From an uncultured bacterium (lineage in GTDB: Bacteria; Armatimonadota; Abditibacteriia; Abditibacteriales; Abditibacteriaceae), in NCBI GenBank assembly GCA_963843795.1, contig CAWJLW010000006.1:1488001-1552000 (forward strand): DNA of 64,000 bases. Direction: 5' to 3'. This document shows, in pieces, positions 757 through 60,030 of this stretch (its first letter is position 1; every line of letters begins with the position of its first letter). The position numbers and the translations under genes were made by a program. Below the pieces are notes generated by a model. It was not told the origin of the DNA. It worked only from the letters and a program-made list of their open reading frames with translations, and did not search any database.

Positions 757-1896
757 ATGAACAGCCCCGCAAGTACTTGCAGCCCCAATGAAACTCAAAA
801 CATAGATGACATCGCGTCCAAAGTTTGGAATGGCGAACGTTTATCTTATGAAGATGGCGTGCGTTTGATGCATCATCCAAATTTGAACGAACTGGCGATT
901 TTGGCCGATCACGTTCGCCAGCGCGTCAATCCGGGCCGCGTCGTGACGTATATCGCGGGGCGCAATATCAATTATTCCAACGTGTGCTGGGTGCAATGTA
1001 AGTTCTGCGCATTTTACGATTTGCCGTCCTCGCAAAAAGGCTACACGCTTTCGCACGATCAGATTTTTGGCAAAATCCAAGAAATGGTCGATTTGGGCGG
1101 TATCGAAATTCTGCTGCAAGGCGGCCTCAATCCGCGCTTGAAAATCGACTATTACGAAGATTTATTCAGCGCCATCAAAGCCAAATTCCCGCAAGTGTGG
1201 ATTCACGGACTCAGCGTCGCCGAAATTCTCTACATCGCCAAAATCTCACGCTTGAGTTTGGAAGACACCCTGAAACGTTTGCGCGCTGCCGGTTTGGGCA
1301 CGATTCCTGGCGCGGGTGCAGAAATGCTGGTCGATCGCGTGCGCAAAGTCATCGCGCCCTACAAAGATACGACTGCTGAATGGCTCGACACGATGAGTTT
1401 GTGGCACCGTTTGGGTGGCCATTCCAGCGTGACGATGATGTATGGAACGGTCGATACGCCCGAAGATCGAGTCGAGCACATGATTCGCACGCGCGATGTG
1501 CAAGATAAATCGCTGGCCGAAACCATGGGCAGTTTCACCGCGTTTATCGCGTGGAATTTTCAGCCTGATGGCACGCCATTAGGCAATCAATTGAAAAGTG
1601 AAACTCTCGATTGGCGCAAAGCCAGTGGCTTCGCTTATCTGCGCACCGTCGCCGTCGGACGTTTGCTGCTCGATAATATTCCACACCATCAAGCGAGTTG
1701 GGTCACGCAAGGCCCTAAAATCGCGCAAATCGCGCTAGATTATGGCTTAGACGATTTTGGCTCGACGATGATGGAAGAAAACGTGGTTTCCGCAGCCGGC
1801 ACCGATTTCGTGATGCCCATCAGCGAAATTGAACGCTTAATCAGCGAAGCGGGCTACGAACCCAAACGCCGCACTACACTTTACGAAGTGTTGTGA
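757..1896 (+). CDS. mqnC: Cyclic dehypoxanthine futalosine synthase (radical SAM, futalosine menaquinone pathway)
   Basis: RNINYSNVCWVQCKFCAF CxxxCxxC motif; LLQGG, PGAGAE, DFGSTMMEENVVSAAG. Confidence 0.85.
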   Translation: MNSPASTCSPNETQNIDDIASKVWNGERLSYEDGVRLMHHPNLNELAILADHVRQRVNPGRVVTYIAGRNINYSNVCWVQCKFCAFYDLPSSQKGYTLSHDQIFGKIQEMVDLGGIEILLQGGLNPRLKIDYYEDLFSAIKAKFPQVWIHGLSVAEILYIAKISRLSLEDTLKRLRAAGLGTIPGAGAEMLVDRVRKVIAPYKDTTAEWLDTMSLWHRLGGHSSVTMMYGTVDTPEDRVEHMIRTRDVQDKSLAETMGSFTAFIAWNFQPDGTPLGNQLKSETLDWRKASGFAYLRTVAVGRLLLDNIPHHQASWVTQGPKIAQIALDYGLDDFGSTMMEENVVSAAGTDFVMPISEIERLISEAGYEPKRRTTLYEVL

Positions 1897-1908
1897 ACTT
1901 GAAATTCA

Positions 1909-1942
1909 AAACGCGCCCTGCAAGTATTTGCAGGGCGCGTTT
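1909..1942. terminator. Hairpin downstream of mqnC centred on variant core GCAAGTATTTGC
   Basis: aaacgcgccctgcaagt|atttgcagggcgcgttt followed by a T-rich tail. Confidence 0.7.
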
Positions 1943-2134
1943 GTCGTTGTTTGAACTTGAAAATCAGTTCTATTAAACACTGCCTTTTGTTTGTTATGGG
2001 TTGAAATGAAACTAAAGCGGCTTCAAGCTGAGAGCATTGTGCAAATTTTTACTTTTGAATTGAAAGTCCGTTTCCTATTCTAAGTCACACAAAACAAAAA
2101 ATTTCTGTATAACGATGCCGTGCCTATAAATGCG

Positions 2135-2177
2135 AAACTCGTCGCGCATTGCAGATACTGCAATGCGCGACGAGTTT
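2135..2177. terminator. Hairpin terminator downstream of mreB
   Basis: 20-bp arms aaactcgtcgcgcattgcag / ctgcaatgcgcgacgagttt with a 3-nt loop. Confidence 0.7.
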
Positions 2178-2200
2178 TCGATCGAGTTCTGCCGAGCTAA

Positions 2201-3229
2201 TTAGCGTTGGGCAACGCCCGCGTAGGCGAAGTGAGTTTCGGACAGAAGTTCGATTTGGTCGAGTGCCATGCCCGCGCCCATAGCGACGCAGCACAGCGGG
2301 TCTTCGGCGATGTATGTTGGAATGCCGGTTTGGTGATGTAAAAGTTGGTCTAAACCGCGCAACAGCGCGCCGCCGCCGGTGAGATAGATACCGCGTTGGA
2401 CGATATCGGCGCTGAGTTCGGGTGGCGTTTGCTCCAAGACCGAGCGCGTGCGCGCCACGATTTGATTAACGACTTCGCTGATGGCATCACGAATTTCGCC
2501 GGAAGTGATAATCTGACTTTTGGGCAGTCCATCGACCATGTCGCGACCGGAAATTTCCAGCGTCAGTTCTTCTTTGAGCGGATAAGCCGACCCAATTTCC
2601 AATTTAATTTCTTCGGCTGTGCGTTCGCCGATAATCAGGTTATATTCGCGCTTAATATAGCGATGAATCGCTTCGTCCAACTTGTTACCGCCGATACGCA
2701 CCGATTCCGAGCGTACAATGCCACCTAGGGAAATCACCGCGACATCGCTCGTGCCTCCGCCAATGTCGACCACCATCGAACCGGCGGCTTCGGTAATTGG
2801 CAAACCGGCACCAATGGCTGCTGCCATCGGTTCTTCGATTGGATAGGCTTCACGAGCACCAGCAGCGCGCGCAGCGTCCAGAACTGCGCGGCGCTCAACG
2901 CTGGTAACGCCCGAAGGCACACAAATAATGACGCGCGGTTTGAACAGTGAGCGCTTGCCGACGACTTTGCCGATAAACTCGCGCAGCATTTGTTCTGTCA
3001 CGGTGTAATCGGCGATCACTCCGTCGCGAATCGGTTGTAAGGCGATGATGGAACCCGGCGTGCGGCCCAGCATCTGGCGCGCTTCTTCGCCCGCCGCTTT
3101 TAATTCTTTGGTGTGTTTGTTGATGGCGACGACCGATGGCTCGCGTAGGACGATGCCGCGCCCACGCTCGTAAATCAAAACGTTGGCAGTTCCCAAATCA
3201 ATGCCGATATCGCGGCTCATTCCGAACAT
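2201..3229 (-). CDS. mreB: Rod shape-determining protein MreB
   Basis: DIGIDLGTAN, EEPMAAAIGAGL, VDIGGGTS, LEQTPPELSADI, LTGGGALL. Confidence 0.97.
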   Translation of the reverse strand: MFGMSRDIGIDLGTANVLIYERGRGIVLREPSVVAINKHTKELKAAGEEARQMLGRTPGSIIALQPIRDGVIADYTVTEQMLREFIGKVVGKRSLFKPRVIICVPSGVTSVERRAVLDAARAAGAREAYPIEEPMAAAIGAGLPITEAAGSMVVDIGGGTSDVAVISLGGIVRSESVRIGGNKLDEAIHRYIKREYNLIIGERTAEEIKLEIGSAYPLKEELTLEISGRDMVDGLPKSQIITSGEIRDAISEVVNQIVARTRSVLEQTPPELSADIVQRGIYLTGGGALLRGLDQLLHHQTGIPTYIAEDPLCCVAMGAGMALDQIELLSETHFAYAGVAQR

Positions 3230-3370
3230 TTATTCTCCGTTTCCCTGCTGCTTCCAAACCAAATAGCCCGCAAGTACTTGCAAGTACTTGCGGGCTATTA
3301 TTTTACAACGATAGCAAATTATTGGTTCTGCAAGTACTTGCAGAACCGACATCAAACTGATTTCAAATAT

Positions 3371-4768
3371 TTAACCTGTGCGCGCCACCAGTTCAGGTTC
3401 ATCGAACGAAGTGTCTTCGACTGGAATCGCGAACGTTTGTCGTGCGATTTGTGCGCCGATAGCGTGAAATTTTTCTACGATACCGACGTAGCCGCGATCA
3501 ATATATTCGACCTTCGCCACTTCGGTGCGCCCTTCCGCTCCCAGACCAGCCAGCACCAAAGCTGCGCCCGCGCGCAGATCAGAAGCTTCGACAATCGCGC
3601 CCGAAAGTTTCTCGACGCCAGTCGCGATGGCAACGTTTTCTTTGCGCGTGATGTCGGCGCCCATACGCACCAATTCAGAAACGAAATTGAAACGTCCGTC
3701 GTAGAGATTTTCTTCGATCACCGAGCGGCCTTGAGCGCGGCACATCATCGCCAGAAAGAACGGTTGTAAATCGGTCGCAAAGCCCGGAAACGGTGCGGTG
3801 GTAATATCCACGGCTTGCAGCGCTTGGGTTGCGCGAGCGCGAATCCACTGATTGCCTTCTTCGGCGCTGCTGGTAATTTCCAGACCAGCGCGCTCGAGCT
3901 TTTCCAGATAAACCGGTAAATGCGAGGGCTTCAAGCCGCGCACGGTGATGTCGCCGCCAGTCAAACCGGCAGCCGACAAGTAAGTTCCCGCTTCAATGCG
4001 ATCGTTGAAAATACTAATTTCCGCGCCGTGCAAAGCCTCGACGCCATCGATCACGATGGTCGAAGTGCCCGCGCCGGCAACGCGCCCGCCCATTTTGCAC
4101 AGAAAATCGGCCAAGTTCACGACTTCGGGTTCGCGTGCCGCGTTTTCAATCGTCGTCTGGCCTTTGGCCAAACACGCTGCCATCATGATGTTGACTGTCG
4201 CGCCGACCGAAGTGTTTTTCGGTTCAAGATATATTTCGGCACCGTGCCAATTGGGCGCGGTCGCATTCATCGCGCCATGTTCAACGGTGATTTCCGCGCC
4301 CATTTTGCGAAACGCGTCGATGTGATAATTGACTGGACGGTCGCCCAGAACGCAACCGCCGGGCAGAGGCACTTCGGCTTGATGTAAACGCGCGAGCAGA
4401 GGAGCGGCCACATAAAAACTGGCGCGCATTTTTCGCACTAAATGATCGGGCGCGCTGTGCGAGGACAGCGTTCCCGCATTGATAATAACGGTTGTTCCTT
4501 CGCGTTTCACCTGCGCGCCCAGCGAACTGAGCATGGCGCACATGGTTTCCACGTCGGAGATGCGCGGCACATTGTGCAAAACGCACTCGCCAGACGAGGC
4601 CAAAAGCGAGGCGGCGAGAATGGGGAGTGAGGAATTTTTGGAGCCAGAGATCGGCACTTCACCACACAGCGGAGCACCGCCCATGATAACAATGCGTTCT
4701 TCGGAGATTGAGGTAGAAGGGGAGATTGGAAAGTTTTTGGGGGACATAACGGAAATGTGCTGGGTCAT
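3371..4768 (-). CDS. murA: UDP-N-acetylglucosamine 1-carboxyvinyltransferase
   Basis: SGSKN, RKMRAS, LPGGC..GDRP, NAAREPE, DRIEAGT, PGFATD, DLRAGA; AGGAGG RBS before ATG 4768. Confidence 0.96.
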   Translation of the reverse strand: MTQHISVMSPKNFPISPSTSISEERIVIMGGAPLCGEVPISGSKNSSLPILAASLLASSGECVLHNVPRISDVETMCAMLSSLGAQVKREGTTVIINAGTLSSHSAPDHLVRKMRASFYVAAPLLARLHQAEVPLPGGCVLGDRPVNYHIDAFRKMGAEITVEHGAMNATAPNWHGAEIYLEPKNTSVGATVNIMMAACLAKGQTTIENAAREPEVVNLADFLCKMGGRVAGAGTSTIVIDGVEALHGAEISIFNDRIEAGTYLSAAGLTGGDITVRGLKPSHLPVYLEKLERAGLEITSSAEEGNQWIRARATQALQAVDITTAPFPGFATDLQPFFLAMMCRAQGRSVIEENLYDGRFNFVSELVRMGADITRKENVAIATGVEKLSGAIVEASDLRAGAALVLAGLGAEGRTEVAKVEYIDRGYVGIVEKFHAIGAQIARQTFAIPVEDTSFDEPELVARTG

Positions 4769-5023
4769 TGTCAGCTGCCTCCTATGGAATGATGTTGCTG
4801 TAAAGAAAAGTGCGATTATGGTGCGATTTGAGGCGACTTTTGGTCGGTCAAGTTGTCTGCAAGTACTTGCACCCGTATTTGCAGGGAATGTTAGTGCGAG
4901 GGTCGGGGCACAGTGTAGTGAGCGCTGAGAAAAATTGCGACCCCGAATGCGCAATTTCAGTAAAAAATCTCAAAACTGCAGTAGCTCGCTGTTCATTGTT
5001 CCACAAAACACGTATATCACACA

Positions 5024-5061
5024 AAAAAGCAGTCGGACAATTAATTGTCCGGCTGCTTTTT
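5024..5061 (-). terminator. Terminator of atp operon (loopless palindrome centred on ggacaattaattgtcc)
   Basis: aaaaagcagtcggacaatt|aattgtccggctgcttttt just after atpC stop. Confidence 0.75.
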
Positions 5062-5068
5062 ATAGGGG

Positions 5069-5491
5069 CTATTTCGCTCGATCACCAGCAACGCGCATTC
5101 GCGCGCGAGCGCGTTTGAGCGCTGTTTCGGCACGTTCGCGTTCCATTACCTGTTCCGGTTCCAACTGACCCGCCAGACGTGACTTCGCGCGTTCTTCAGC
5201 TTCGCGTGCCCGTGCCACGTCGATATTTTCAACGCTCTCAGCAGAATCGGCCAAGACAATCGCTTGATTGTCCATCATCTGAAAAAAGCCGCCGCCGATA
5301 TACAAATTCATCTCGCCATTTTCGGCATCGCGAATATCCAATGCGCCCGGCTCCAGAGCCGCTACGATCGGTGCGTGGTTGCGCATCACTCCGAAAGAAC
5401 CCGCTAAGCCGGGCAGCGAAACTTGCTGCACCGCAGCATTGAGAATTTCGCGTTCTGGTGTCACGATTTGAAGGTTAAATGTTACAGCCAT
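5069..5491 (-). CDS. atpC: ATP synthase F1 epsilon subunit
   Basis: LQIVTPER, GSFGVMRNHAP, GGFFQM, ALKRARARM; operon position. Confidence 0.95.
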   Translation of the reverse strand: MAVTFNLQIVTPEREILNAAVQQVSLPGLAGSFGVMRNHAPIVAALEPGALDIRDAENGEMNLYIGGGFFQMMDNQAIVLADSAESVENIDVARAREAEERAKSRLAGQLEPEQVMERERAETALKRARARMRVAGDRAK

Positions 5492-5618
5492 AGTGAAAGA
5501 GGGAGGAAGAGAACAATGAGAGGGCGAAGACAAAAGTGTGGCGCACGTACTTGCTCTGCGGCAATTGAACGCTATATAAACCGTCTTGTCTTTACCCGCT
5601 CACTTCTCTCTTTTCAAT

Positions 5619-7178
<1,560 letters not shown>

Positions 7179-7258
7179 TTATCACGCCTCACTATTCAGT
7201 TATTCTTTGTTGGGACCCTGCGAACCCAGAGCTAAGCTACAAGTACTTGCTGCTCATT

Positions 7259-8149
7259 TTAACCATTCAATGCTTCTGCACCGCCGACAATGTCCAGCAG
7301 TTCTTTGGTGATATTCGCCTGTCGCGTGCGGTTGTAAATCAGCGTCAAATTTTCGGCCTGCTCGTCGGCGTTTTTGGTAGCATTCGTCATCGCCGTCATT
7401 TTAGCGCCAAATTCAGATGCCACCGATTCCAGCAACAACTGATAAACGCGCGTTTCGACAAAGCGCGGCAGCAAAGTCGCCAGCAATTGCGGCGCTTCCG
7501 GCTCGAAAATAATGTCTTTAGAGCTACCACCCACGGCGCTTTGCTCGTCGCTGTCGCCAGTCGGTGGTTCGATGGGCAGGAATTTTACTGTTTGCGGTTT
7601 CTGGCTAATCACTGAACGAAATTCTGTGTAAGCAACATGAACTTCGTCGACTTGACCGGTGAGAAACATTCCTGTCACCGCATTGGAAATTGCGCGCACT
7701 TCATCATAGGCTGCCTTGTCACCAATTGAAGCGAAACGTTGTGTAACATTATATTCGCGGCGTGTAAAATAATCGCCCGCTTTGCGGCCGACGGCGATAA
7801 TGCGCACATTGTCGGCACCAAGTTGCGCGATCTGTCGGTCGATGAAATTGTGTGCCACGCGCAGGATATTGGTATTGTAGGAACCGCACAGGCCTTTGTC
7901 GGCAGCGATGACAACGACGCCGATGGAATGCACTTCGCGCGAGTCGAGCAGTGGATGCGCAAAGTCGCGCACGTTAGGCGCCAGCATTCCGACCAGTTGC
8001 GTCATGGTCTGAGAATACGGTTTGCCACGTTCGACGCGCTCTTGCACGCGGCGCAGTTTGGCGGCCGCCACCATTTTCATCGCCTGAGTAATTTTGCTCA
8101 GGTTGGTGACGACGCGGATTTTTTGCTTGATGTCGCGTAATGATGCCAT
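7259..8149 (-). CDS. atpG: ATP synthase F1 gamma subunit
   Basis: KITQAMKMVAAAKL, DKGLCG, YNRTRQANITKEL. Confidence 0.97.
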   Translation of the reverse strand: MASLRDIKQKIRVVTNLSKITQAMKMVAAAKLRRVQERVERGKPYSQTMTQLVGMLAPNVRDFAHPLLDSREVHSIGVVVIAADKGLCGSYNTNILRVAHNFIDRQIAQLGADNVRIIAVGRKAGDYFTRREYNVTQRFASIGDKAAYDEVRAISNAVTGMFLTGQVDEVHVAYTEFRSVISQKPQTVKFLPIEPPTGDSDEQSAVGGSSKDIIFEPEAPQLLATLLPRFVETRVYQLLLESVASEFGAKMTAMTNATKNADEQAENLTLIYNRTRQANITKELLDIVGGAEALNG

Positions 8150-8253
8150 GATTGTATGTGAAATTACGCTGCAAGTACTTGCAGTGTATAAGCGTTGATT
8201 AGTGAATTCGTAGAGACCAGCATTGTCTCATCCCTACAAATGTTGGTGGAAAA

Positions 8254-9810
8254 TTACGCGCCTGGAACTAATCCGCTATCTTCGCTTTGGTTGAATTGAC
8301 CATTGAATTCTTCCAATGCGCCTTTCAATCGCTCTTCGATTTCCGGCTTAATCTGCTTGTCGTTTTCAATTGCTGCAATCACATCTGGGTAGCGCTCGCG
8401 CATATAAGGCATCACTTCGCGTTCATAACGCAAAACATCAGCGACCGGAATCGGATCAAGATAACCGTTGGTGCCCGCGTAAATGATGACCACTTCTTCG
8501 ACCAGATCGAGTGGTTTGTAGTTGACCTGTTTTAATAATTCGGTCAAGCGTTGGCCGCGGTTCAATTGCGCCTGCGTTGCCTTGTCCAAGTCAGATGCGA
8601 ATTGTGCGAAAGCCGCCAGGTCACGATAGCGCGCCAAATCTAATTTCAAACGACCGGCGACCTGTTTCATCGCTTTGGTTTGTGCCGCACTTCCCACGCG
8701 CGAAACGCTCAAACCGGCGTTAATGGCGGGGCGAACACCGGCGTTGAACAAGTCTGGCTCCAAGAAGATTTGACCATCAGTGATTGAAATCACGTTGGTC
8801 GGAATATAGGCCGAAATGTCGTTCAATTGAGTTTCGATAATCGGCAGCGCTGTCAAAGAGCCTCCGCCCAAATCGCGGTGCATTTTCGCGGCGCGTTCCA
8901 ACAAACGCGAGTGCAAGTTGAACACGTCGCCCGGATAAGCTTCGCGGCCCGGCGGACGGCGCAACAACAACGACATAGAACGGTATGCGACAGCATGTTT
9001 GCTCAAATCGTCATAAACGATGAGCGCGTGTTCGCCCAAATCGCGGAAATATTCGCCCATTGCGCAACCGGCATACGGCGAAATATATTGCAACGGCGCC
9101 GAATCATTCGCTGTAGCAGCGACGACAATGGTGTATTCCATCGCGCCGGCTTTTTCCAATTGATCGACCAAAGCGGCGACCGTGCCTTGTTTCTGACCGA
9201 TGGCGACGTAAATGCAGTAAACGCCCAGACCTTTCTGGTTGATAATGGCGTCGATAGCGACTGAAGTTTTTCCGGTTTGGCGGTCGCCGATAATCAGTTC
9301 ACGCTGGCCGCGCCCGATGGGAATAATCGCGTCCACAGCTTTGATGCCAGTTTGCAGCGGTTCTTTGACGCCTTCGCGTTCCATCACGCCGGGCGCTTTC
9401 ACTTCGATCAAACGGCGCTCGTCGGTAACAATTGGGCCTTTGCCGTCAATCGGCTCGCCCAAGGCGTTCACCACGCGACCAATGAGTGCGCGGCCCACCG
9501 GCACGTCGGCGATGCGACCGGTGGTTTTTACCGTATCGCCCTCAGCGATGTGGGTATAAGCTCCGGCGATCACAGCACCAACGTTGTCTTCTTCGAGGTT
9601 GAGCGCGATGCCCATGGTGGGCAAGTTGGTGTTGGGATCGACAGGAAATTCCAGCAACTCGCCGGATTTGGCGCCCTGCAAGCCGTAAACGCGCGCGATG
9701 CCGTCGCCAATTTCCAACACTTCACCCACGTCCACCATCTTCAATTCCTGCTCGAACCCTTCGAGTTCGCGCTGAATCACACTGGTAATTTCTTCCGGTC
9801 GTAACGCCAT
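8254..9810 (-). CDS. atpA: ATP synthase F1 alpha subunit
   Basis: [32 protein letters not shown]. Confidence 0.98.
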
Positions 9811-9924
9811 AGTTGTTTGATTTCCTTCACACCAGGCGCACTGCAATTCCTTGCGCCGTTCGTGTCGTGTTTATTTGATTATTTTAATTCGGTCTTCACC
9901 CTGCGATTATTCTCAGGACACTTT

Positions 9925-10518
9925 TTATTCAACCGGCACTTCAACGTTTGCCGCTGTCGCTTGGTCGCCGCCGATGCGAACACGCTTCAATTGTTCGCGC
10001 AGCATTTGCAGTTGTGTGGTAATGCTCCCATCAATCAAATGATCGCCCACGCGAACCGTCATTCCACCCAAGATGCTGGGATCTACATGAGTCAATAAGC
10101 GAATTTTCTTGTAACCGGTTGTCGCTTCCAATCTCTTCACCAAAGCGTCTTTTTGCGTTTCAGACAGTTCGACCGCCGTGGTCGCCTCGGCGTCGGCTTC
10201 GCCTTTCCATTCATCGACCAATTTCTCGAAATGCACGCCAATCGCGGGTAATAATCCCACGCGATCGCGCGTAATCAGCAAGCGCAAAAAGGCCTGTAGG
10301 GTGGGGCGCAAATCGCCAAAAATCTGGCCGGTCAATTCGTTTTTGCGCTTTTCTGTAATGCGTGGATGAGTCAGCACTTGCATTAATTGCGGCTCGTTGC
10401 GCGCTGTGGCTAGTACTTGCGACAAGTCTTGTGATACGGCATCGACATCGCTTTTGCGTGCCATTCCGAAAAGAGCCGAAGCGTAGCGGCGCGCGGCACG
10501 GGTATCGCCTGCTGCCAT
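9925..10518 (-). CDS. atpH: ATP synthase F1 delta subunit
   Basis: AARRYASALF, VDPSILGG..RVGDHLIDGS. Confidence 0.95.
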   Translation of the reverse strand: MAAGDTRAARRYASALFGMARKSDVDAVSQDLSQVLATARNEPQLMQVLTHPRITEKRKNELTGQIFGDLRPTLQAFLRLLITRDRVGLLPAIGVHFEKLVDEWKGEADAEATTAVELSETQKDALVKRLEATTGYKKIRLLTHVDPSILGGMTVRVGDHLIDGSITTQLQMLREQLKRVRIGGDQATAANVEVPVE

Positions 10519-44546: not shown

Positions 44547-44553
44547 ATTTCGA

Positions 44554-51668: not shown

Positions 51669-52729
51669 AAGCGATGTCGCCCATCGAAACGGTTTCGGTC
51701 GTAATTCCGGTTTACAACGAAGAAGGCAACTTGCCCGAACTCTTGCGCCGCACTCTGGAATCGTGCCGCGCCATGCAGCGCCCGTTCGAACTGATTCTGA
51801 TTGATGATGGTAGCCGCGATAGCTCGGTGAATCTCATGGAAGCTGCGGCAGCGCAAAATGCGGAAGTGGTGTGCGTGCTGCTCAATCGCAATTATGGTCA
51901 ACATGCGGCAATCATGGCCGGTTTCGCGCAGGCGCGTGGCGATCTGGTAATTACGCTCGATGCCGATTTACAAAACCCGCCGGAAGAAATTCCCCGTTTG
52001 GTCGAAAAAGCCGGCGAAGGATTCGATGTCGTGGGCACAGTGCGACTCAACCGCGCCGACAGCGGTTTTCGCAAATTCGCCAGTTCTCTGGTCAACAAAG
52101 TGACGGCTAAAGCCACTGGTGTGATGATGCACGATTACGGTTGTATGCTGCGCGCTTATCGTCGTCACGTCGTCCAAGCGATGCTGCAATGCCACGAGCG
52201 CAGCACTTTCATTCCCGCGCTGGCCAATTCGTTCGCGCGCCACGCAACCGAAATCGAGGTTTCGCACGCCGCGCGCGCGACCGGCGAATCGAAATACAGC
52301 GTGTGGAAGCTAATCAATTTGCAGTTCGATTTGCTCACTGGCATCAGCACGTTTCCATTGCGTTTGCTGAGCTTGATCGGTACTTTCGTTTCAGTCTTAG
52401 GTATTGGCTTTGGTGTTTTGCTTTTGGCGTTGCGTATATTTTTTGGTCGCATATGGGCAGCCGAAGGCGTTTTCACTTTGTTCGCCATCTTGTTTATTTT
52501 CGTCGGTTTGCAGTTCATCGGCATGGGACTTCTGGGCGAATACATCGGGCGCATTTATCAGGATGTGCGCGCTCGTCCGCGCTTTTTTGTGCAAGAAGTG
52601 AGCGGAACTGGGTTGCGGAAAATGGACGCGAACACCAATGATTTGGACAGCGCACCGATGCCGATTGGCGCGGGCACGCCACATTTGCGCGAAACGGAAG
52701 CCGTGCAAGTACTTGCAGCGCGTTCATAA
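51665..52729 (+). CDS. arnC: Undecaprenyl-phosphate Ara4FN transferase
   Basis: [62 protein letters not shown]. Confidence 0.93.
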
Positions 52730-52840
52730 GCAGAAGTTCATTTAAAAGCAGAAACTGATTGAATCTTCGTGCTTTGAACGTGGTGCAAGTACTTGCAGCG
52801 CAACAGTATCAACATCCATCCCTCAAGGATTAAAATTTCT

Positions 52841-54841
52841 ATGAAAGCAGTTGTCCTGGCATATCACAATGTTGGTTGCGTTGGTCTCGAAGCTTTGCTG
52901 CGTCACGGCGTCGAAGTCGTGGCCGTATTCACACACCGCGACGATCCACACGAAAACGTCTGGTTCGATTCGGTGGCGGCTCTGGCCGCCGCGCACAACA
53001 TTCCGGTTTACGCGCCCGACGACATCAATCATCCAATTTGGACGCGGCGCATTGCGGAAATGCAGCCGGATATTTTGTTTTCGTTTTATTATCGCAACCT
53101 GATTCGCCCCACTCTACTCGATATTCCGCCGCAAGGCTGTCTCAATTTGCATGGTTCGCTGCTGCCCAAATATCGCGGGCGCGTGCCGGTTAACTGGGCT
53201 TTGATTCACGGAGAAACGGAAACCGGAGTTACGCTGCACTACATGACGCCGCGCCCCGACGATGGCGACATCGTCGCCCAACAAAGCATGCCAATTACGC
53301 CCAACGACACCGCGCGCACGCTTTTCGACAAAATCGTCGGCGCATCCACGCAACTTTTGGACGGTATTCTGCCCGCCATCATCGCTGGCAACGCGCCGCG
53401 CACGCCACAAAACGCTGCCGAAGCGACTTATTTCGGCGGGCGCAAAGCCGATGACGGCGAAATTGACTGGACACAAAGCGCCACGCAAATCCGCAACTTA
53501 ATTCGCGCCGTTTCGCAGCCTTATCCGGGCGCATTCACGCAACATCTCGACGATAAACTCATCGTGTGGCAAGCGACGGTCGCGGAAGCGAAAAAGGCCG
53601 AGGCGGGCACAATTCTTTCGCTCGAACCGCTGCTTATCGCGTGTGGCGAAGGCGCTTTGCGCATCGATTTCGCGCAGGCCGAGAACGGCATTTACACTAC
53701 GGGCGCGCAGGCCGCCGCAGAATTGCGTTTGGTGGCTGGCACGAAATTGGGCGTTCGCCCGCCGCAGCGAGTGAAGAAAAAAACCAGCATTTTGATTCTG
53801 GGCGCCAACGGTTTCATTGGCAACGCGCTCAGCGAGCGTTTACTGGCCGACGGCAATTATGAAATTCACGGTCTAGATTTGCACTGCGACAAAATCGAGC
53901 GTTTGCTGGGCCGTCCCAATTTTCATTTCGAAGAAGGCGATATTTCAATTCATCGCGAATGGATCGAATATCATGTGCGCAAATGCGATGTCGTAATTCC
54001 TCTGGTGGCCATCGCCACGCCGATTGAATATGTGCGCAACCCGCTGCGCGTTTTCAACCTGGATTTCGAGGAAAACCTGCGCGTGGTGCGCTACTGCGCC
54101 AAGTATCGCAAGCGCGTCGTTTTCCCTTCAACTTCCGAAGTTTATGGAATGTGCGACGAGGACGAATTTGATGAAGACAATTCACAATTGGTGCTGGGAC
54201 CAATTCGGATGCAGCGCTGGATCTATTCCTGCTCCAAGCAATTGTTGGATCGCGTGATCTGGGCTTACGGTCAGCAAGAAGGTTTGCAGTTCACGCTTTT
54301 CCGACCGTTCAACTGGATCGGCCCGCGTCTGGACACTTTGCAATCGGCACGCATCGGAAGCTCGCGCGCGATTACGCAACTGATTTTGAATCTGGTCGAA
54401 GGTAGCCCCATTTCTCTCGTCGATGGCGGCCTGCAAAAGCGCTGTTTCACTGCCACAGATGACGCCATCGAGTGTTTGTTCCGCATCATTGAAAACCCGG
54501 ACGGCGTTTGCGATGGCCAGATTTTCAACATCGGCAATCCCGACAACGAAGCCAGCATCAAAGAACTCGCGCAAATGGTCGTCGATGAATTTGAAACGCA
54601 CCCGCTGCGTTCGCATTTTCCGGCTTTCGCCGGTTTTCAGGAAGTCGAAAGCGCCAATTATTATGGCAGCGGCGGCTATCAGGACGTGGAACATCGTCGT
54701 CCCAGCATTCACAAAGCTGATAAATTGCTCGGCTGGACGCCCACAATCGGGATGCAGGAAGCGGTTGCGATCACGGTCGATTTCTTCTTGCGCGAAGCCA
54801 TTGAAAGCGGCGATTTCGCGCTTAATTCCGTCGAGGTTTAA
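52841..54841 (+). CDS. arnA: Bifunctional UDP-GlcA decarboxylase / UDP-Ara4N formyltransferase
   Basis: [51 protein letters not shown]. Confidence 0.95.
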
Positions 54842-54847
54842 ATCATT

Positions 54848-55750
54848 TTGGGCATAAATTCCCGCCAAATTGGCTTGCGCATCGATGTCGATACTTTGCG
54901 CGGCACGCAGCGCGGTGTACCCGCGCTGTGCCGCATTCTGGCGCAGCGACAAATCAAGGGCACGTTCTTTTTCTCGGTCGGCCCCGACAATATGGGCCGC
55001 CATTTGTGGCGCTTATTGAAGCCGCAATTTCTGCTCAAGATGCTGCGTTCCAACGCCCCTTCGCTCTATGGCTGGGACATCATTTTGCGCGGCACGCTGT
55101 GGCCCGGCCCACTTATTGGCGCGGCCAATGTCACGGCGATTCGAGCCGTCGCCCAGGGCGGCCACGAAATCGGCATTCACGCTTGGGATCATTACGCCTG
55201 GCAAACCCACGTCGAACGTGCTGGTTTGGCGGGCGTGCGCGAATGGATGCAGCGCGCCGCGCAAGTTCTCACCGACATCACCGGACGCGCGCCGACGTGC
55301 GCTGCCACGCCGGGCTGGCGTTGTACAGATGAAGTTTTGATTAATCGCGAAGAATTTGACTTCGCTTTCAACAGCGATTGTCGCGGCCAAAGCGTATTTC
55401 GCCCGCAGGTCAAGGGGCAAGCTCTTTCGCAACCACAAGTTCCCAGCACATTGCCAACGTATGACGAACTCATTGGTCAAGATGGCATCACCAACGAAAA
55501 CTACAATCGCCATTTGATGAGTTTATTGCGCCCGAATCAATTGAACGTTTTGACAATTCACGCCGAAGCCGAAGGCATCGTGTGCGCCGATTTGTTCGCG
55601 CAATTTTTAGATGAAGTGCTATCGCAAGGCTGGCAGGTTGTGCCGTTGGGCAGAATTGTGCAGCAGGCCCAGTCGCAGACATTGCCGCAATGCGAGGTTT
55701 TGAAGCAAGTGATTGCGGGCCGCGAAGGTTGGGTAGCGGCGCAAAGCTAA
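54848..55750 (+). CDS. arnD: Ara4FN deformylase (TTG start uncertain)
   Basis: GLRIDVDT.RGT, FFFSVGPDNMGRHLWRL, HAWDH, TIHAEAEG. Confidence 0.93.
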   Translation: MGINSRQIGLRIDVDTLRGTQRGVPALCRILAQRQIKGTFFFSVGPDNMGRHLWRLLKPQFLLKMLRSNAPSLYGWDIILRGTLWPGPLIGAANVTAIRAVAQGGHEIGIHAWDHYAWQTHVERAGLAGVREWMQRAAQVLTDITGRAPTCAATPGWRCTDEVLINREEFDFAFNSDCRGQSVFRPQVKGQALSQPQVPSTLPTYDELIGQDGITNENYNRHLMSLLRPNQLNVLTIHAEAEGIVCADLFAQFLDEVLSQGWQVVPLGRIVQQAQSQTLPQCEVLKQVIAGREGWVAAQS

Positions 55751-55786
55751 AAATATGTTGCAAGTATTTGCAACATATTTTTAGCT
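55745..55786. terminator. 42-bp palindrome (one mismatch) spanning the convergent stops of arnD and the feo cluster
   Basis: agctaaaaatatgttgcaagt|atttgcaacatatttttagct. Confidence 0.8.
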
Positions 55787-55976
55787 ATTTCGATTGTGGC
55801 GGTTTCAAATTCATCTGAATTTGCACCAGTTCTGGCTGCTTCGGCGCGGTGTTCGATGGGCATTTGCCGCAACCGCCGTTGCCGCACGAGCCGCCGCCCA
55901 TCGAATCGCGCAGGGTGCGCCACACGTTCCATGCGGCGACCCCGACGATAGCAAAAACTGCAATTTCTTGTATCAT
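55785..55976 (-). CDS. FeoB-associated small Cys-rich membrane protein
   Basis: One TM helix then GSCGNGGCGKCP; directly downstream of feoB. Confidence 0.8.
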   Translation of the reverse strand: MIQEIAVFAIVGVAAWNVWRTLRDSMGGGSCGNGGCGKCPSNTAPKQPELVQIQMNLKPPQSK

Positions 55977-56037
55977 TTTCTGTTCTCTAACTTGTTTCAA
56001 TCAAACTTTCGTCCTGCAAGTACTTGCAGGGCAATTT

Positions 56038-58245
56038 TTAGCCCCAGCCGAGCCAGCGCCCGCCTTGATAGACAATCAAACTGGCGAAATAGGCCAGAGC
56101 CGTGAGATAAACCTGCATCACAATTGGCCATTTCCAGCCGTTAGTTTCGCGACGCACAATCGCCAAAGTCGAAATGCACTGCATCGCCAAGACGAAATAA
56201 ACCAAGAGCGAAACTGCGGTTAAGGTCGTCCAGACCGGACGGCCATCAGGCCAGCGGTCGGCGCGCAAGCTGTCTTGCAATGGTCGCGAGGTTTCATCCG
56301 CATCGGCGACCGAATACACGGTGCCCAGCGTCGAAACGAACACTTCGCGAGCCGACATCGCGCCGATTAAGCCGATGCCAATTTTCCAGTTGAAGCCCAG
56401 CGGCGCAATCAATGGTTCGATGACGTGGCCCAAACGACCCGCGAACGAATGACTAATTTGATCTGCTGCTTCGTGCTCTGCCTCCATTTTTTCCGCCCTT
56501 TGATCTGCGGTCACGGACGAAGTTTGCGCGGTAGGCATGGGCTGCGCGGGAGCAAGAATCGGCGTTTTGGGATAGCTAAGCAGGAACCAGAGCAGAATCG
56601 AAAGCGATAAAATTACGGTGCCAGCGCGTTTCAAAAACTGGCTGGCGCGATCCCACATCGTCACTAATATGTTGCGCCAACTCGGTGTTTTATACGCGGG
56701 CAACTCCAAAATCAACGAAGGCGGCGGCCCTTTCAAAACCGTGCTTTTCAAGAACCACGCCACCAATAGCGCAGCAATCACGCCGCCGGCATACAGCGAA
56801 AAAAGCGTCACGGCGCGCAACGATAGGACGCCCCAGTGACGGTTAGGGATAAACGCGCCGATCATCAGCGCATAAACTGGCAGGCGCGCCGAACACGCCA
56901 TTAACGGCGCAATTAAAATTGTCGTCAAGCGGTCGCGAGGGTCGGCGATGGTGCGCGTGGACATGATTCCCGGAATCGCACAGGCGAAGCTGGAAACGAG
57001 GGGAATAAAAGCGCGCCCATGCAAGCCGACCCGCGCCATCAATCTGTCCATCAAAAACGTGGCGCGCGCCATGTAACCGGTGTCTTCCAGCAAGCCGGTG
57101 AAGAAAAATAAGACCAAAATTTGTGGCAGGAAAATCACGACCGCGCCCACGCCCGCGATCACACCATCGACAACCAAATCGCGCAACGGGCCTTCCGGCA
57201 TTGACTGCGTCACCAGATTACCGGTTTGCGCCACCATCCCATCAATCCAATCCATCGGCACGGTGGCCCAGGTATAAATCGCTTGAAAAACCAGCAGAAT
57301 AATCAGCGCAAAAACTGCTAATCCGCCAATCGGATGCAGCAAAACGCTATCGACTCGGTCAGAAAACGAGCGCGGCGTTTGACTTTTAATTTGTTTGGTC
57401 ACGCGACGCGCGATTTGGGCGCTTTGCGTATGGCGCGCGCGCGCTTCTTCGGCGCCGATATCGCGCCCGACTTCTTTGGCGTGCAAATCGACGCAGGCTT
57501 CGATTTCCGGCCCCAACTGCGCGCGCCAACTCGCATCGGGAGAAGGGTCAGCCAGAATGCGCAGCGCGTTGGCTTCGCGGGCGCGCACGGTTTTCGGTAA
57601 GCGCTCGGCGATAATATTGCGCGCTACGCTCACATCTTCAGGCAGCGAAAGTTCCAAAGAACGCGGCGCGCCTTCTTCCACGACCAGCGCCAATTGTTCG
57701 CGCAGTTCATCCAAACCCTCGCCACGAATCGCAACACATGGCACGACCGGAGCGCCTAATTCGCGCGCCAATTCTTCGCTGTCGATTTCTTTGCCCTGCG
57801 CAAGGGCTACATCGCTCATGTTCAGCGCGATGACCGTCGGATAACCCAACTCAAGCACTTGCGTTGCCAGATATAAATTACCGCCCATATTGGAAGCATC
57901 GACGACGAGAATAATCGCATCGGGCAAATCGAGTTCGCTGCGCCAGTGCAGCAAAACGTCGCGCGTGATAGTTTCATCGGGTGAAGTTGGAACCAGAGAA
58001 TAAGTGCCCGGCAAATCTAATAAAGTCGCTTCGCCCCGCTCGGGCAGCCACAAGCGGCCTTCTTTTTTCTCGACTGTGACGCCAGGATAATTACCCACTT
58101 TCTGGCGCAGGCCGGTGAGAGCGTTGAACAGCGTAGTTTTGCCCGCATTGGGATTGCCGACCAGAGCCACACGCCGCGCCACTGCGGGCGCGCGCTTGTG
58201 CATGTCAGAAGCGCCAATTAAAACGGGAGAAGATACAGTTTTCAC
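56038..58245 (-). CDS. feoB: Ferrous iron transporter FeoB
   Basis: GNPNAGKT, VGNYPGVTVEKK, DLPGTYSL, LEDTGYMAR, CSARLPVY. Confidence 0.97.
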   Translation of the reverse strand: MKTVSSPVLIGASDMHKRAPAVARRVALVGNPNAGKTTLFNALTGLRQKVGNYPGVTVEKKEGRLWLPERGEATLLDLPGTYSLVPTSPDETITRDVLLHWRSELDLPDAIILVVDASNMGGNLYLATQVLELGYPTVIALNMSDVALAQGKEIDSEELARELGAPVVPCVAIRGEGLDELREQLALVVEEGAPRSLELSLPEDVSVARNIIAERLPKTVRAREANALRILADPSPDASWRAQLGPEIEACVDLHAKEVGRDIGAEEARARHTQSAQIARRVTKQIKSQTPRSFSDRVDSVLLHPIGGLAVFALIILLVFQAIYTWATVPMDWIDGMVAQTGNLVTQSMPEGPLRDLVVDGVIAGVGAVVIFLPQILVLFFFTGLLEDTGYMARATFLMDRLMARVGLHGRAFIPLVSSFACAIPGIMSTRTIADPRDRLTTILIAPLMACSARLPVYALMIGAFIPNRHWGVLSLRAVTLFSLYAGGVIAALLVAWFLKSTVLKGPPPSLILELPAYKTPSWRNILVTMWDRASQFLKRAGTVILSLSILLWFLLSYPKTPILAPAQPMPTAQTSSVTADQRAEKMEAEHEAADQISHSFAGRLGHVIEPLIAPLGFNWKIGIGLIGAMSAREVFVSTLGTVYSVADADETSRPLQDSLRADRWPDGRPVWTTLTAVSLLVYFVLAMQCISTLAIVRRETNGWKWPIVMQVYLTALAYFASLIVYQGGRWLGWG

Positions 58246-58365
58246 GGAAATTGAAGAAACACAAAAGGGAGAAAAAGGAAGTTTAAACGCAAAAAGCCCG
58301 TTGCAAGTACTTGCAACGGCGCTTTAGCAGGTCGGGCGCAGCACATTTACTAATTCATTTTCGTT

Positions 58366-58689
58366 TCAATCCTCAACATCGCGGCACAACACTTTTTCAG
58401 CGACCGCGTGGGCCAAACCAAAACGGGCATCGCACACACGCACCACAATCGGATGACCGTGTCGTAAAATTGTCACCCGAGCGCCTTCACACAAGCCCAA
58501 ATCGCGTAATCGCGCCGCCTCGCCCGCATCGTTGCACAACTGCTCGATGCGCACGCACTGTCCAGCACGCGCACAGCACAACGCCGTACATTGAGCCGCG
58601 TGCTCGTGAAGCGCCTGCGAGCGGGATGCCTCGTGGTGATTTTTCAACGGCGTGGCTTTTTTCCGACGGGCGAGAAATGTTGGTTTCAT
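58366..58689 (-). CDS. feoA: FeoA family protein
   Basis: RLRDLGLCEG..V.ILR..PIVVRV..RFGL; upstream of feoB. Confidence 0.85.
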   Translation of the reverse strand: MKPTFLARRKKATPLKNHHEASRSQALHEHAAQCTALCCARAGQCVRIEQLCNDAGEAARLRDLGLCEGARVTILRHGHPIVVRVCDARFGLAHAVAEKVLCRDVED

Positions 58690-58881
58690 AACAATGAATA
58701 AACAGTGCAATTCTAAATCCGACTCTTTCGCTCGGATTTGATTTCTAAATGCCAATTTAACCCAAAGACGCGCACAATGCAATACCGAATGGGAAAATTC
58801 ACCTACTTTCTATCGGGCATTTTCTGGCGGCAAAAGTTGCGCTCGGCATTTAAAAACCCTGTTTCGCTAAACTGCATAGCG

Positions 58882-60030
58882 ATGCAAGCGAGCAAAAGGA
58901 CGAAAAACGGAAAAAGTTGTGATGTCGCGGTGATTGGCGGCGGAATTATCGGTTTGAGTTGTGCGTGGCGATTGGCACAGCGCGGATTGCAGGTATCGCT
59001 TTTCGAGCGCGGCGCCTTGGCTGGGGAAGCCACCCGCGCGGCGGGCGGAATGCTTGCCGCGCAGTGTGAAACCGCTCATCACGCGCCAGACACCCAAGAG
59101 ACTGCCGCACGCAATGCGATGTTCGCTGCCGGCTTATCATCGCGCGCTTTGTATAGCGAATTCGCGCGCGAATTGAAAAATCTCACCGGCATCGACCCGC
59201 AACTTTCGCTGCGCGGCTCTACTGACGATTGGCGTACGCCGGGCATTTTGTATATCGCCAGCAATCGCGACGACGGCGCTGCGCAGGCTTTTGCTATTCA
59301 GAAAAATTGCGGTCATGCCGTCGAACCCACGCATTTCGGCCCGTTTGATGCGTGGTGGCTGCCCGATGAAGGCCAAATCGACAACCGTTTGCTGGCGCAA
59401 TCCTTGACCGCGGCGTGCGAAAATTCGGGCGTGGAACTGCGAGCGTACACATCTTTAGAAAACGTCGATTTGTACGACGAAAGCGTTGATTTGATTTGCG
59501 GCAGCGAAAATGTGCGCTGCAAGTACTTGCTGATGTGCGCGGGCGCGTGGAGTGATGGCCTGCTGCCATTTTCTCTGCCCACACGACCGCTGCACGGCCA
59601 AATTGTGCTGCTGCAAACGCAACGACAAATCGACCGCGTTTTGTATGCCTCAGAGGTTTACTTAGTGCCGCGCCGCGACGGGCGATTGCTCATCGGCGCA
59701 ACCATGCAAGAGCGCTCTTTCGACCAAACCTCTACCGCGCGCGGCGTGCATTTTCTGCTGAATCGTGCCTTGGAATTGGCACCCGAGCTGGGCGATTGCG
59801 CCCTGCTCGATCACTGGGCCGGTTTGCGACCGATAACGCCCGATGGTTTGCCGTTTATCGGGCGCACACAGCACCCGCAAGTACTTGCCGCGACCGGGCA
59901 CGGACGCAACGGCATTCTGCTGGCACCTCAAACGGCTCAGTGGATTGCCGAAGAAATCGTCGAAAATCAAAGCGCGCCACGCGAATTTTCGCCGCAGCGT
60001 GTGGTAGTCAAAAGCAGCGCTTCGTTATGA
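58882..60030 (+). CDS. thiO: Glycine oxidase ThiO
   Basis: VIGGGIIG, AAGGML, YLVPR.DGR, WAGLRP.TPDG.P, ATGHGRNGILLAP; overlaps thiS. Confidence 0.9.
   Translation: MQASKRTKNGKSCDVAVIGGGIIGLSCAWRLAQRGLQVSLFERGALAGEATRAAGGMLAAQCETAHHAPDTQETAARNAMFAAGLSSRALYSEFARELKNLTGIDPQLSLRGSTDDWRTPGILYIASNRDDGAAQAFAIQKNCGHAVEPTHFGPFDAWWLPDEGQIDNRLLAQSLTAACENSGVELRAYTSLENVDLYDESVDLICGSENVRCKYLLMCAGAWSDGLLPFSLPTRPLHGQIVLLQTQRQIDRVLYASEVYLVPRRDGRLLIGATMQERSFDQTSTARGVHFLLNRALELAPELGDCALLDHWAGLRPITPDGLPFIGRTQHPQVLAATGHGRNGILLAPQTAQWIAEEIVENQSAPREFSPQRVVVKSSASL

Follow-up and report, generated by a model that had tools for sequence, protein, structure and literature searches.

We tentatively interpret the 12-bp palindrome GCAAGTACTTGC, found in 2,567 copies in a genome likely belonging to the Abditibacteriaceae, as a genome-wide tag resembling HIP1 and uptake sequences. 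A solitary methyltransferase likely methylates its GTAC, and a putative protein, which would favour tagged fragments in uptake or homologous recombination, likely reads it in duplex DNA; we consider this reading a good candidate, somewhat short of probable. New here are the phased flanks, the methyltransferase/nuclease pattern, and the even spread with absence from islands and co-option in terminators. Tags this strong have been described for few lineages (Pasteurellaceae, Neisseriaceae and cyanobacteria), and the role of HIP1 and the origin of such tags are a long-standing question.

Abundance of the palindrome within and between genes

The window, that is, the whole stretch of 64,000 nucleotides analysed, contains 40 exact copies of GCAAGTACTTGC, and the genome one per 1.7 kb, against order-3 Markov expectations of 0.002 and 0.12 copies, respectively. 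Coding copies are a minority in the window, because 13 lie in called genes and 27 between genes; genome-wide, 70% of the copies are intergenic and 754 occur in frame within genes. The intergenic copies in the window span 361..61512 and start at 361, 3270, 3280, 3330, 4859, 8171, 11159, 11190, 14036, 15171, 16740, 17597, 17617, 20329, 23407, 25276, 32669, 33940, 37084, 39020, 40831, 42360, 47627, 52785, 56016, 58303 and 61501.

The initial annotation had reported 12 exact copies inside coding sequences, and all of them were recovered at their coordinates and in the frames claimed (QVLA at eight sites, ASTC at two and CKYL at two), in genes whose identities agree with NCBIfam. QVLA is encoded in genes for an FAD oxidoreductase (15447..15458), a Ser/Thr kinase (21788..21799), an ABC ATPase (35724..35735), a phosphohexomutase (41865..41876) and a GT2 glycosyltransferase (45137..45148), and in arnT (50266..50277), arnC (52705..52716) and thiO (59877..59888). 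ASTC is encoded in the N-terminal extension of mqnC (769..780) and in argS (39326..39337), and CKYL in argS (39283..39294) and thiO (59519..59530). The variant described in atpH (10409..10420) is a one-mismatch copy, GCTAGTACTTGC, likewise read as QVLA. One more exact copy, absent from that annotation, lies either within the GT2 gene or immediately ahead of its start (45434..45445); gene calls came from a self-trained model with uncertain starts, and the coding status of this copy hangs on a doubtful one.

Exact-motif encoding clearly exceeds the expectation from synonymous-codon shuffling, with 13 copies observed and 0.054 expected in the window (maximum 1 in 500 shuffles) and 754 observed and 7.5 expected in the genome (maximum 17 in 20 shuffles). 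Genome-wide, the coding copies are distributed over the three reading frames as 495/143/116. Motif codons are used by 420 of 474 internal QVLA peptides, against 0.4% expected, and by 90 of 106 ASTC peptides, against 0.2% expected. Orthologues keep the codon GTA at 43 of 63 motif sites, compared with 16 of 515 positions elsewhere, and the codon CTT at 45 of 66, compared with 103 of 985. The use of three frames, the excess of motif codons and the retention of synonymous codons in orthologues all support the constraint at the DNA level that had been proposed.

The exact 12-mer was present in 0-3 copies in each of 60 relatives, and viral contigs searched for a 16-mer gave six single matches and no enrichment. 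An Rfam scan of the window yielded only a tmRNA. The 12-mer was not found in the openly accessible articles and preprint main texts searched; among the papers listed on palindromes or repeats in Abditibacter or Abditibacteri, titles and the opening lines of abstracts held nothing on this motif, and the accessible parts of articles on orphan methyltransferases or GTAC, and those of PMC8919816 and PMC7253447, held nothing relevant.

Origin of the coding copies

After orthologue pairs with less than 45% identity or shorter than 100 aa were dropped, 66 of 99 aligned coding sites showed no net indel and 4 showed a gain of 12 nt. In the window, no gap was seen at the phosphohexomutase site against three orthologues, nor against same-genus orthologues at the GT2 site (EILP) and the ASTC site of argS (ASAL), whose core is common to a metagenome relative; the QVLA site of thiO aligned with no gap or a one-residue gap. 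The core of the CKYL site of argS is in register in a metagenome relative, and the same-genus orthologue of mqnC carries AGTACT in register, in its own dialect. Two orthologues of the FAD oxidoreductase keep the peptide, but not the motif codons. Coding sites favour variable protein segments, and those of the ABC ATPase and arnC fall in C-terminal tails beyond the family profile. In relatives with around 65% protein identity, AGTACT was in register at 53 of the 99 sites, against 0.05% of random windows; roughly every second coding site is thus of ancient origin and has been maintained. The proposed conversion of near-matches by substitution agrees with the mostly ungapped alignments, but as ongoing fresh conversion it is incomplete, about half of the sites being old. 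Substitution rather than insertion fits the 66 sites without net indel, although motif-bearing segments, seen from the relatives, tend to be longer than shorter (60 versus 27 of 313, and 34 versus 15 of 136).

This last tendency would be expected of a REP- or MITE-like element that a transposase spreads and that enters genes without shifting the frame, its 12 bp being four codons and thus a multiple of three. REP/BIME and Ssn-associated repeats are also abundant palindromes with many intergenic hairpins, according to the accessible text of PMC11893778, and the genome does contain many intergenic hairpins and a fragment of a Y1 transposase (one partial match of 140 aa, E 4e-7), with a single copy 124 bp downstream of it, as in half of all spacers. 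However, there are no arrays and no clustering around the transposase; the flanks differ between copies; and the sites, including the 754 in-frame copies, are even and conserved. A small Ssn-type GIY-YIG gene was not found in the host genome (G000, 92% complete), where PF01541 matches only frames of 672 and 450 aa. With most sites lacking a net indel, spread by insertion as in REP/RAYT or MITE elements is largely refuted, and we consider it extremely unlikely.

The motif had also been suggested to introduce Cys residues. This applies to the CKYL site of argS, where the Cys is new (present in 0 of 26 other ArgS rows), and overall, since only 8 of 28 motif Cys columns are matched by an orthologue Cys, compared with 1,712 of 2,543 for other Cys; it does not apply to the CKYL site of thiO, where Cys occurs in four of five orthologues and is ancestral. 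A DNA-level signal thus changes residues in a tRNA synthetase, and proteins may tolerate the motif in variable segments, sometimes with the gain of a Cys.

Spacing and co-option in terminators

Copies are evenly distributed along the chromosome (spacing CV 0.89), and the two largest gaps, of 26 kb each, fall in islands that hold IS elements together with a type I R-M system. Close pairs are depleted in the relative G009, with g(r) of 0.05-0.4 below 400 bp. Coding copies occur at 0.4x near intergenic copies and at about 2x beyond 2 kb, and coding-coding pairs in G000 showed no repulsion.

Copies are enriched between convergent genes, and 71% of those in convergent spacers (n = 283) have long arms and A/T tracts, the long-armed ones folding with z of -4 to -12. 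In the window, the copy at 23407 is extended into a perfect 52-bp hairpin between convergent genes (23387..23438), suggestive of terminator-like co-option, and that at 39020 into a perfect 46-bp hairpin downstream of argS (39003..39048). These arms and tracts could mean that the motif is merely the standard stem-loop of the intrinsic terminators of this organism, or an RNA signal, but a copy is also present in 54% of the divergent spacers, where long arms are seen in just 10%, and coding copies are conserved and keep their phased flanks (see below), yet fold no better than shuffles. We find this explanation hardly credible, and use in terminators would be secondary.

Helically phased flanks and the proteins that might read them

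A/T and GC oscillate symmetrically about the centre of each copy, with a period of about 10.6 bp (10.4-10.75) and a reach of about 60 bp. GC peaks at 0, 10 and 21 and A/T at 5, 15 and 26, a phase that we take to be that of nucleosomes. Around coding copies, the relative AA/TT amplitude is 0.23 (null maximum 0.067) and the oscillation at third codon positions 0.068 (null maximum 0.013), with one phase common to the copies in all three frames. An artefact of amphipathic helices was rejected as the source of phasing, and genome-wide A-tract periodicity was rejected from its amplitude of 0.01-0.03, against 0.14-0.16; phased flanks were absent around QVLA-like peptides without the motif. The dialects of G009, G012 and the metagenome contigs oscillate in the same phase. 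Neighbouring copies tend to lie a whole number of turns apart (146 pairs, Rayleigh p 7e-9 at 10.5 bp), a spacing of which metagenome relatives gave no sign (79 pairs, p 0.6). We propose that the flanks are phased because the reader protein bends or wraps DNA, and they provide a physical handle on this reader that is missing for HIP1.

Two-sided phasing to about 60 bp, together with the spacing by whole turns, goes beyond the two tracts seen in the USS, and an intracellular protein that wraps DNA would suit it no less well. A dimeric nucleoid protein could bind the palindrome around once per kb and wrap about 120 bp, with selection on spacing keeping sites even in genes. Besides that spacing, such an architectural role is favoured by the symmetric oscillation in three frames and at third codon positions, by its shared phase across the dialects, and by a phase that is presumably nucleosomal. 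The histone folds PF00808 and PF09123 were not matched in the 92% complete G000, although divergent bacterial histones could escape such a search, and integral-turn spacing is absent from the metagenome relatives. In addition, the fast turnover of dialects, one of them asymmetric, and the many motif-free relatives would be unusual for a core nucleoid protein, and the link to a GTAC nuclease (see below) is left unexplained. A chromosomal role has been proposed for HIP1, as far as the accessible text of PMC5861425 goes; overall, we regard intracellular architecture as unlikely, if still a serious possibility.

Strong sites for DNA gyrase or Topo IV might also look like this: the staggered cut would fall on the 4-bp centre, and the arms, in helical phase, would wrap the GyrA C-terminal domains. 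The E. coli gyrase motif is described in the available part of PMC6379681 as symmetric, of about 130 bp, and with GC periodic at 10.75 bp, so that its span and period match ours; moreover, copies are enriched between convergent genes and a GyrA with a GyrA-box-like stretch is encoded. However, the palindrome does not have the phase of that motif about its centre, since with the centres superimposed the two GC profiles run counter to each other (r -0.52 at zero shift) and agree best when displaced by -4 or +7 bp, although cleavage away from the centre may still occur. The E. coli motif is degenerate and without a fixed core, the enzyme reading shape rather than a strict 12-mer with dialects, and we consider this explanation very improbable.

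Dialects in relatives

Related genomes carry their own versions of the motif: CAAAGTACTTTG in G001, TCGAGTACTCGA in G009 and G015, the variant CGAGTACTCG in G012, and CAAGTACTTG on metagenome contigs. In G006, the motif is the non-palindromic AGTACGGTCGA, with 2,412 copies; 84 of 140 sampled copies form inverted pairs and the remainder are single, a layout typical of uptake sequences. G007, G016 and G018 contain an abundant motif without GTAC, CAGCCACG, and G018 also has the nuclease. An asymmetric reading of the palindrome itself was without support, its arms varying roughly independently in relatives. With palindromic, asymmetric and unrelated dialects, tag-free relatives and core-purging relatives, sorting with a candidate nuclease, the family constitutes a natural experiment.

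A solitary methyltransferase and a restriction-fold partner

All seven genomes with the GTAC motif encode a solitary PF01555 methyltransferase of the beta class (N6/N4), located at G000:C6:2517365-2518135 in the host genome. It is insufficient for the motif, because 15 of the 20 family genomes without a motif have it as well. Conversely, a restriction-fold partner occurs in none of the seven motif genomes and in 13 of the 20 motif-free ones (Fisher p 0.006, uncorrected for kinship), a contrast for which the tree of one gene gives about two independent pairs of lineages. A search of the motif genomes for a diverged copy of the partner, run in part without a positive control, found none. The methyltransferase adjoins the partner in 6 of 80 loci, plus G020, and most motif-free relatives with the partner purge GTAC. 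Since the hosts of this restriction-fold protein avoid GTAC, and since the methyltransferase is its neighbour in some genomes, we infer GTAC to be the target of the methyltransferase.

The partner had no sequence match in Pfam or the PDB, but its predicted structure matches PD-(D/E)XK nucleases, with MutH as the best (Z 7.1, rmsd 4.0, 147 aligned), followed by NhoI and PvuII, and its start is often signal-peptide-like; this restriction-fold family is probably exported. Of 22 viral loci with homologues of the partner, several of them near-duplicates, 21 have GTAC as their rarest or second-rarest palindrome of 4 bp, and no methyltransferase homologue adjoined the viral partner genes. The O/E of GTAC was 0.58 in 74 loci without the partner, compared with 0.72 in relatives without the methyltransferase. 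The R.PabI family had no match in 46 genomes, but as the controls gave none either, this negative carries no weight.

A solitary methyltransferase in all seven motif genomes would also suit a ratchet of methyl-directed mismatch repair at methylated GTAC, as modelled for HIP1, in which the sites are a functionless by-product. The model predicts saturation near one site per kb and short-range repulsion (PMC4390886, accessible part), but it adds one base per side, whereas four bases per side, plus flanks to 60 bp, are constrained here. Furthermore, sites are kept over long times and not turned over, the MutH-like fold sits in the partner, absent from motif genomes, and no C5 methyltransferase was found in G000. 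We deem the ratchet quite improbable.

With the palindrome as a tag, loss of the nuclease could have freed GTAC from avoidance, leaving a methyl mark usable by a reader. With considerable doubt, this can be extended to an inside-out GTAC R-M system in one family: lineages with the exported nuclease would have cleared GTAC from their genomes, which lets the DNA of kin through a filter outside the cytoplasm, and lineages without it would keep the methyltransferase and would have written a methylated GTAC palindrome, with about 120 bp of nucleosome-like phased flanks, once per kilobase. The result would be a species-specific code for wrapping and self-recognition, strong enough to rewrite protein sequence and read by a putative protein.

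A proposed tag for uptake or recombination

In favour of a tag we count the dense, even spread with its gaps in islands, the conserved coding sites and codons, the dialects, the methyltransferase and partner pattern, and the scarcity of close pairs; the lack of repulsion between coding copies in G000 and the abundant motif without GTAC in three relatives speak against it. Biased uptake or recombination of tagged DNA would fix near-matches by substitution and keep old sites, with diminishing returns for new sites once another lies within about 0.5-1 kb, and the reader would bend or wrap DNA. In G000, comEC, comEA and dprA are open and the pil operon is present; breaks in this type IV pilus operon are single extra bases missing from short-read contigs, and decay of the operon was rejected as a likely assembly error. 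Competence genes do not discriminate, because comEC was found in all 26 family genomes, whether or not they have a motif. USS and DUS have a dedicated pilin receptor, ComP-like, and pilin-like genes are present in G000. The uptake sequences described so far are not palindromes and lie mostly within genes, so the palindromic form and the 70% of intergenic copies weigh against uptake.

Comparison with known systems

The analogy with HIP1 and uptake sequences drawn in the initial annotation is apt, although membership in either is not demonstrated. In cyanobacteria, HIP1 is GCGATCGC, accompanied by GATC and CGATCG methyltransferases. The palindrome shows HIP1-like over-representation (2,567 copies versus 0.12 expected, about 1 per kb), but it is not HIP1 proper, having another sequence and lineage, and CGATCG is under-represented in G000 (O/E 0.2). 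HIP1 and alternate cyanobacterial palindromes likewise occur about once per kb, in all frames, conserved beyond codon use and with lineage variants (PMC4390886, PMC5861425, PMC13756078 and 10.1101/2024.09.10.611283, each in its accessible part); in the same sources, HIP1 is tied to orphan methyltransferases (PMC4390886), is conserved in all frames (PMC5861425) and, when methylated, raises transformation (10.1101/2024.09.10.611283). A further likeness may be the solitary methyltransferase, likely acting on the core. Nevertheless, HIP1 is 8 bp and our palindrome 12 bp, with a GTAC core, a beta-class N6/N4 enzyme and no C5 enzyme found, 70% intergenic copies with terminator co-option, phased flanks to about 60 bp, and an Armatimonadota host lineage in which the motif goes together with the loss of a partner of restriction fold.

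Uptake in C. jejuni requires a methylated motif, a short palindrome on which CtsM methylation makes a self mark, in the accessible text of PMC8468864; that motif is a short degenerate 6-mer, whereas here it is a strict 12-mer, presumably methylated.

The USS of Pasteurellaceae and DUS of Neisseriaceae resemble the palindrome in density, tolerance in genes by substitution and dialects around a core, as well as in phased T/A tracts, terminator co-option, absence from islands and competence genes; helically phased T-tracts, tolerance in coding sequence and terminator co-option are described for the H. influenzae USS in the accessible part of PMC3458573. The competence machinery expected of uptake sequences is present here (comEC, comEA, dprA and the pil operon), and the phased A/T tracts are longer than in the USS and two-sided, extending over five turns. 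Unlike USS and DUS, the motif is palindromic and likely methylated; a non-palindromic core with inverted-pair terminators does not occur in G000, and only the asymmetric and paired dialect of G006 is DUS-like in this respect.

A duplex-DNA signal that overrides codon choice

The GTAC-centred palindrome GCAAGTACTTGC is a strict, old signal in duplex DNA, evenly spaced and phased in its flanks, and in tolerant segments it takes precedence over the choice of codon and residue. We found 40 exact copies in the window and 2,567 in the 4.30-Mb genome (G000), against 0.12 expected. Of the genomic copies, 754 lie in genes and 1,793 entirely between them (0.21 vs 3.0 per kb), by the gene calls made in this analysis (3,086 confident genes). 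The initial annotation had listed 12 in-frame copies in the window, all of which were recovered exactly at their positions and in their frames, and its atpH variant at 10409 is a one-mismatch copy. Genome-wide, coding copies read as QVLA (495), xKYL (143) or ASTC (116) and are distributed evenly over gene length; CKYL, ASTC, KYLQ, STCS and QVLA are the top five over-represented tetrapeptides. Synonymous-codon shuffling left 7.5 coding copies expected of the 754 observed. Together with the use of all three frames and the rare codons GTA and CTT kept at motif sites, this excess bears out the earlier proposal of a constraint at the DNA level.

It had also been proposed that the motif introduces Cys residues, which holds overall and in ArgS but not in ThiO. 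Motif codons encode 152 of the 10,618 genomic Cys, and the orthologue column is also Cys for 8 of 28 of these vs 1,712 of 2,543 other Cys. The Cys of the ArgS CKYL occurs in 0 of 26 other alignment rows, whereas that of ThiO is found in four of five orthologues.

Placement and hairpins

Copies are even along the chromosome (spacing CV 0.89), with none in two 26-kb islands. A copy is present in 69% of 391 convergent spacers, against 54% of 414 divergent and 53% of 2,044 tandem ones. Of the copies between convergent genes, 71% have long hairpin arms and A/T tracts, against 27% between tandem genes and 10% between divergent ones. With such arms commonest at convergent copies, and with examples in the window folding strongly but coding copies not, terminator use looks real, although secondary; that the motif is a terminator and nothing else is most improbable. 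Close pairs are rare (g(r) 0.05-0.4 below 400 bp in relative G009), and coding-copy density is 0.4x near an intergenic copy and about 2x beyond 2 kb; repulsion between coding copies was not seen in G000. At 3270-3291 of the window two copies overlap at 10-bp spacing, and genome-wide 20 pairs lie 12-13 bp apart within larger hairpins.

The window also contains a tmRNA gene (33508-33867, minus strand; Rfam RF00023) and a complete aminoarabinose modification cluster, arnT-arnB-arnC-arnA-arnD-like (48620-55750; arnT and arnC by NCBIfam, others by inspection). Genes for a repeat-rich protein (61592-63761) and the ORF before arnT (47838-48498) are split over frames, probably through assembly errors, and short-read contigs lack one base at 47957; frame breaks affect about 10% of compared genes genome-wide.

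Helical phasing of the flanks

The flanks of intergenic and coding copies alike favour CT..AG plus an A-run 8-11 bp beyond each end. Farther out, a symmetric A/T oscillation with a period of 10.4-10.75 bp fades near 65 bp from the centre, with GC minima at about 15, 26, 36, 47 and 57 bp. Its amplitude is 0.14-0.16, vs 0.03 at ordinary AAA runs, and it survives in copies without the nearest A/T run. Isolated coding copies reach 0.23 (null maximum 0.067), and third codon positions 0.068 vs 0.013, in a single phase for all three frames; QVLA-like peptides without the motif showed no phasing. G009, G012 and motif-bearing metagenome contigs oscillate in the same phase, more weakly. Neighbouring copies in G000 are spaced by whole turns (146 pairs, p 7e-9), which was not seen in the metagenome relatives (79 pairs).

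We take the flank phase to be nucleosome-like; no match to a histone fold was found in G000. A role as a nucleoid-wrapping site ranks second among the readings, though we consider it rather unlikely. Span and period also resemble those of the E. coli gyrase motif (PMC6379681), but with centres aligned the profiles are anticorrelated (r -0.52), and a gyrase site is highly improbable.

Age and origin of coding sites

Metagenome contigs recovered by the motif (71 loci used of 130 returned) share about 65% protein identity with G000 and carry the CAAGTACTTG core about once per kb. In codon alignments, AGTACT was in register at 53 of 99 G000 sites, vs 0.05% of random windows. Orthologues retained GTA at 43 of 63 motif sites vs 16 of 515 elsewhere, and CTT at 45 of 66 vs 103 of 985, and site flanks are less conserved than host genes (52% vs 62%). 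Between dialects (lineage-specific variants), sites in register were fewer: 3 of 11 for G001, 2 of 42 for G009 and 0 of 12 for G006.

The claim that sites arose by substitution, not insertion, stood for the most part. There was no net indel at 66 of the 99 sites (background without indel, 87%); G000 had the longer segment at 16 sites and the shorter one at 17, with +12 nt at only 4, and an insertion element is accordingly a very poor candidate. However, motif-bearing segments of relatives were more often longer than shorter (60 vs 27 of 313; 34 vs 15 of 136), which counts against pure substitution. A repair ratchet that generates the motif is an improbable origin.

Dialects across the family

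In 60 relatives the exact G000 12-mer is no commoner than chance predicts. AGTACT counts are bimodal, with 2,800-4,700 in G000, G001, G009, G012, G015 and G019 and 1-50 in 14 of the 21 remaining family genomes. Relatives use the palindromic dialects CAAAGTACTTTG, TCGAGTACTCGA and CAAGTACTTG, and G006 the asymmetric AGTACGGTCGA (2,412 copies, of which 84 in a sample of 140 form inverted pairs), by analogy the dialect most like an uptake sequence. In G006 (L218-L221, L421-L425), singletons lie in genes and inverted pairs carry A/T tails. In a tree of one gene, ArgS, G000 groups with G001 and a metagenome relative, and their sister clade is motif-free and nearly devoid of GTAC; the remaining dialects fall elsewhere.

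A second tag within the family, unrelated to the GTAC motif, is the non-palindromic CAGCCACG of G007, G016 and G018 (L039, L222-L224, L359; about 2,700-3,500 per genome, strands equal), whose flanks hint at phasing (122 sites). G017 (L034), which lacks the GTAC motif and retains methyltransferase and nuclease next to each other, has clustered, longer REP-like repeats; G004 (L042) has four copies of TGTTTCACGTGAAACA, the parS consensus. Foreign-dialect copies cluster where the own motif is sparser (four on G000:C2, four near C6:2.96 Mb, C6:2,955,000-2,965,300), and in G024, where AGTACT is scarce elsewhere, the single contig G024:C98 carries at least 9 copies. In such stretches the dialect may be a sign of DNA acquired from relatives, or else of misbinned contigs.

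A methyltransferase and its restriction-fold partner

G000 encodes a single PF01555 methyltransferase (C6:2517365-2518135), and one of its islands carries the M subunit of a type I system; no C5 methyltransferase was found in G000. Homologues of the PF01555 enzyme bear the names Abditibacterium utsteinense and Abditibacteriaceae, which makes G000 a likely member of that family. Of 26 family relatives, 21 encode the enzyme, two of them in a broken or partial form, and so do all 7 GTAC-motif genomes. In some genomes it adjoins a 215-260-aa protein without a Pfam match, whose structural model (pLDDT 90.6) has its best matches in MutH and restriction endonucleases; with Z no higher than 7.1, these fall short of proving kinship. 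Atlas leads were PvuII- and ScaI-like. Thirteen of the 26 relatives have this partner, and AGTACT numbers 21 or fewer in 11 of these; none of the 7 motif genomes has it (Fisher p 0.006, from about two independent contrasts). In 21 of 22 viral loci that encode partner homologues, at most one other 4-bp palindrome is rarer than GTAC. We infer a putative GTAC restriction-modification pair, its nuclease predicted to be often exported, of which motif lineages would have retained the methyltransferase and lost the nuclease.

A hydrophobic, signal-peptide-like N-terminus was seen by a crude test in 92 of 116 homologues, and the partner persists in G013 and G022, where the methyltransferase looks broken; together these features suggest an exported restriction enzyme. 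The family (L239:800-1444 in G020; L445-L452; P0121-P0240) is restriction-fold, tied to GTAC avoidance and without a name.

Competence genes and comparison with known systems

The comEC, comEA and dprA frames are open in G000. The type IV pilus operon has about six frame breaks, vs 33 per 130,000 aa elsewhere; because short-read contigs from a nearly identical organism are one base shorter at each of five positions, which coincide with four of the breaks (depth 2-4), these are likely assembly errors. comEC is present in 26 of 26 family relatives and does not discriminate motif-bearing from motif-free genomes.

Our literature search found neither the motif sequence nor such repeats in Abditibacteriaceae. 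The likeliest reading, which we hold tentatively, is a methylated self tag, by which tagged DNA would be favoured during uptake or recombination. It is drawn by analogy with USS (PMC3458573), HIP1 (PMC4390886, PMC5861425, PMC13756078, 10.1101/2024.09.10.611283) and the C. jejuni uptake motif (PMC8468864). The G000 motif may work like HIP1 or USS, but it is not HIP1.
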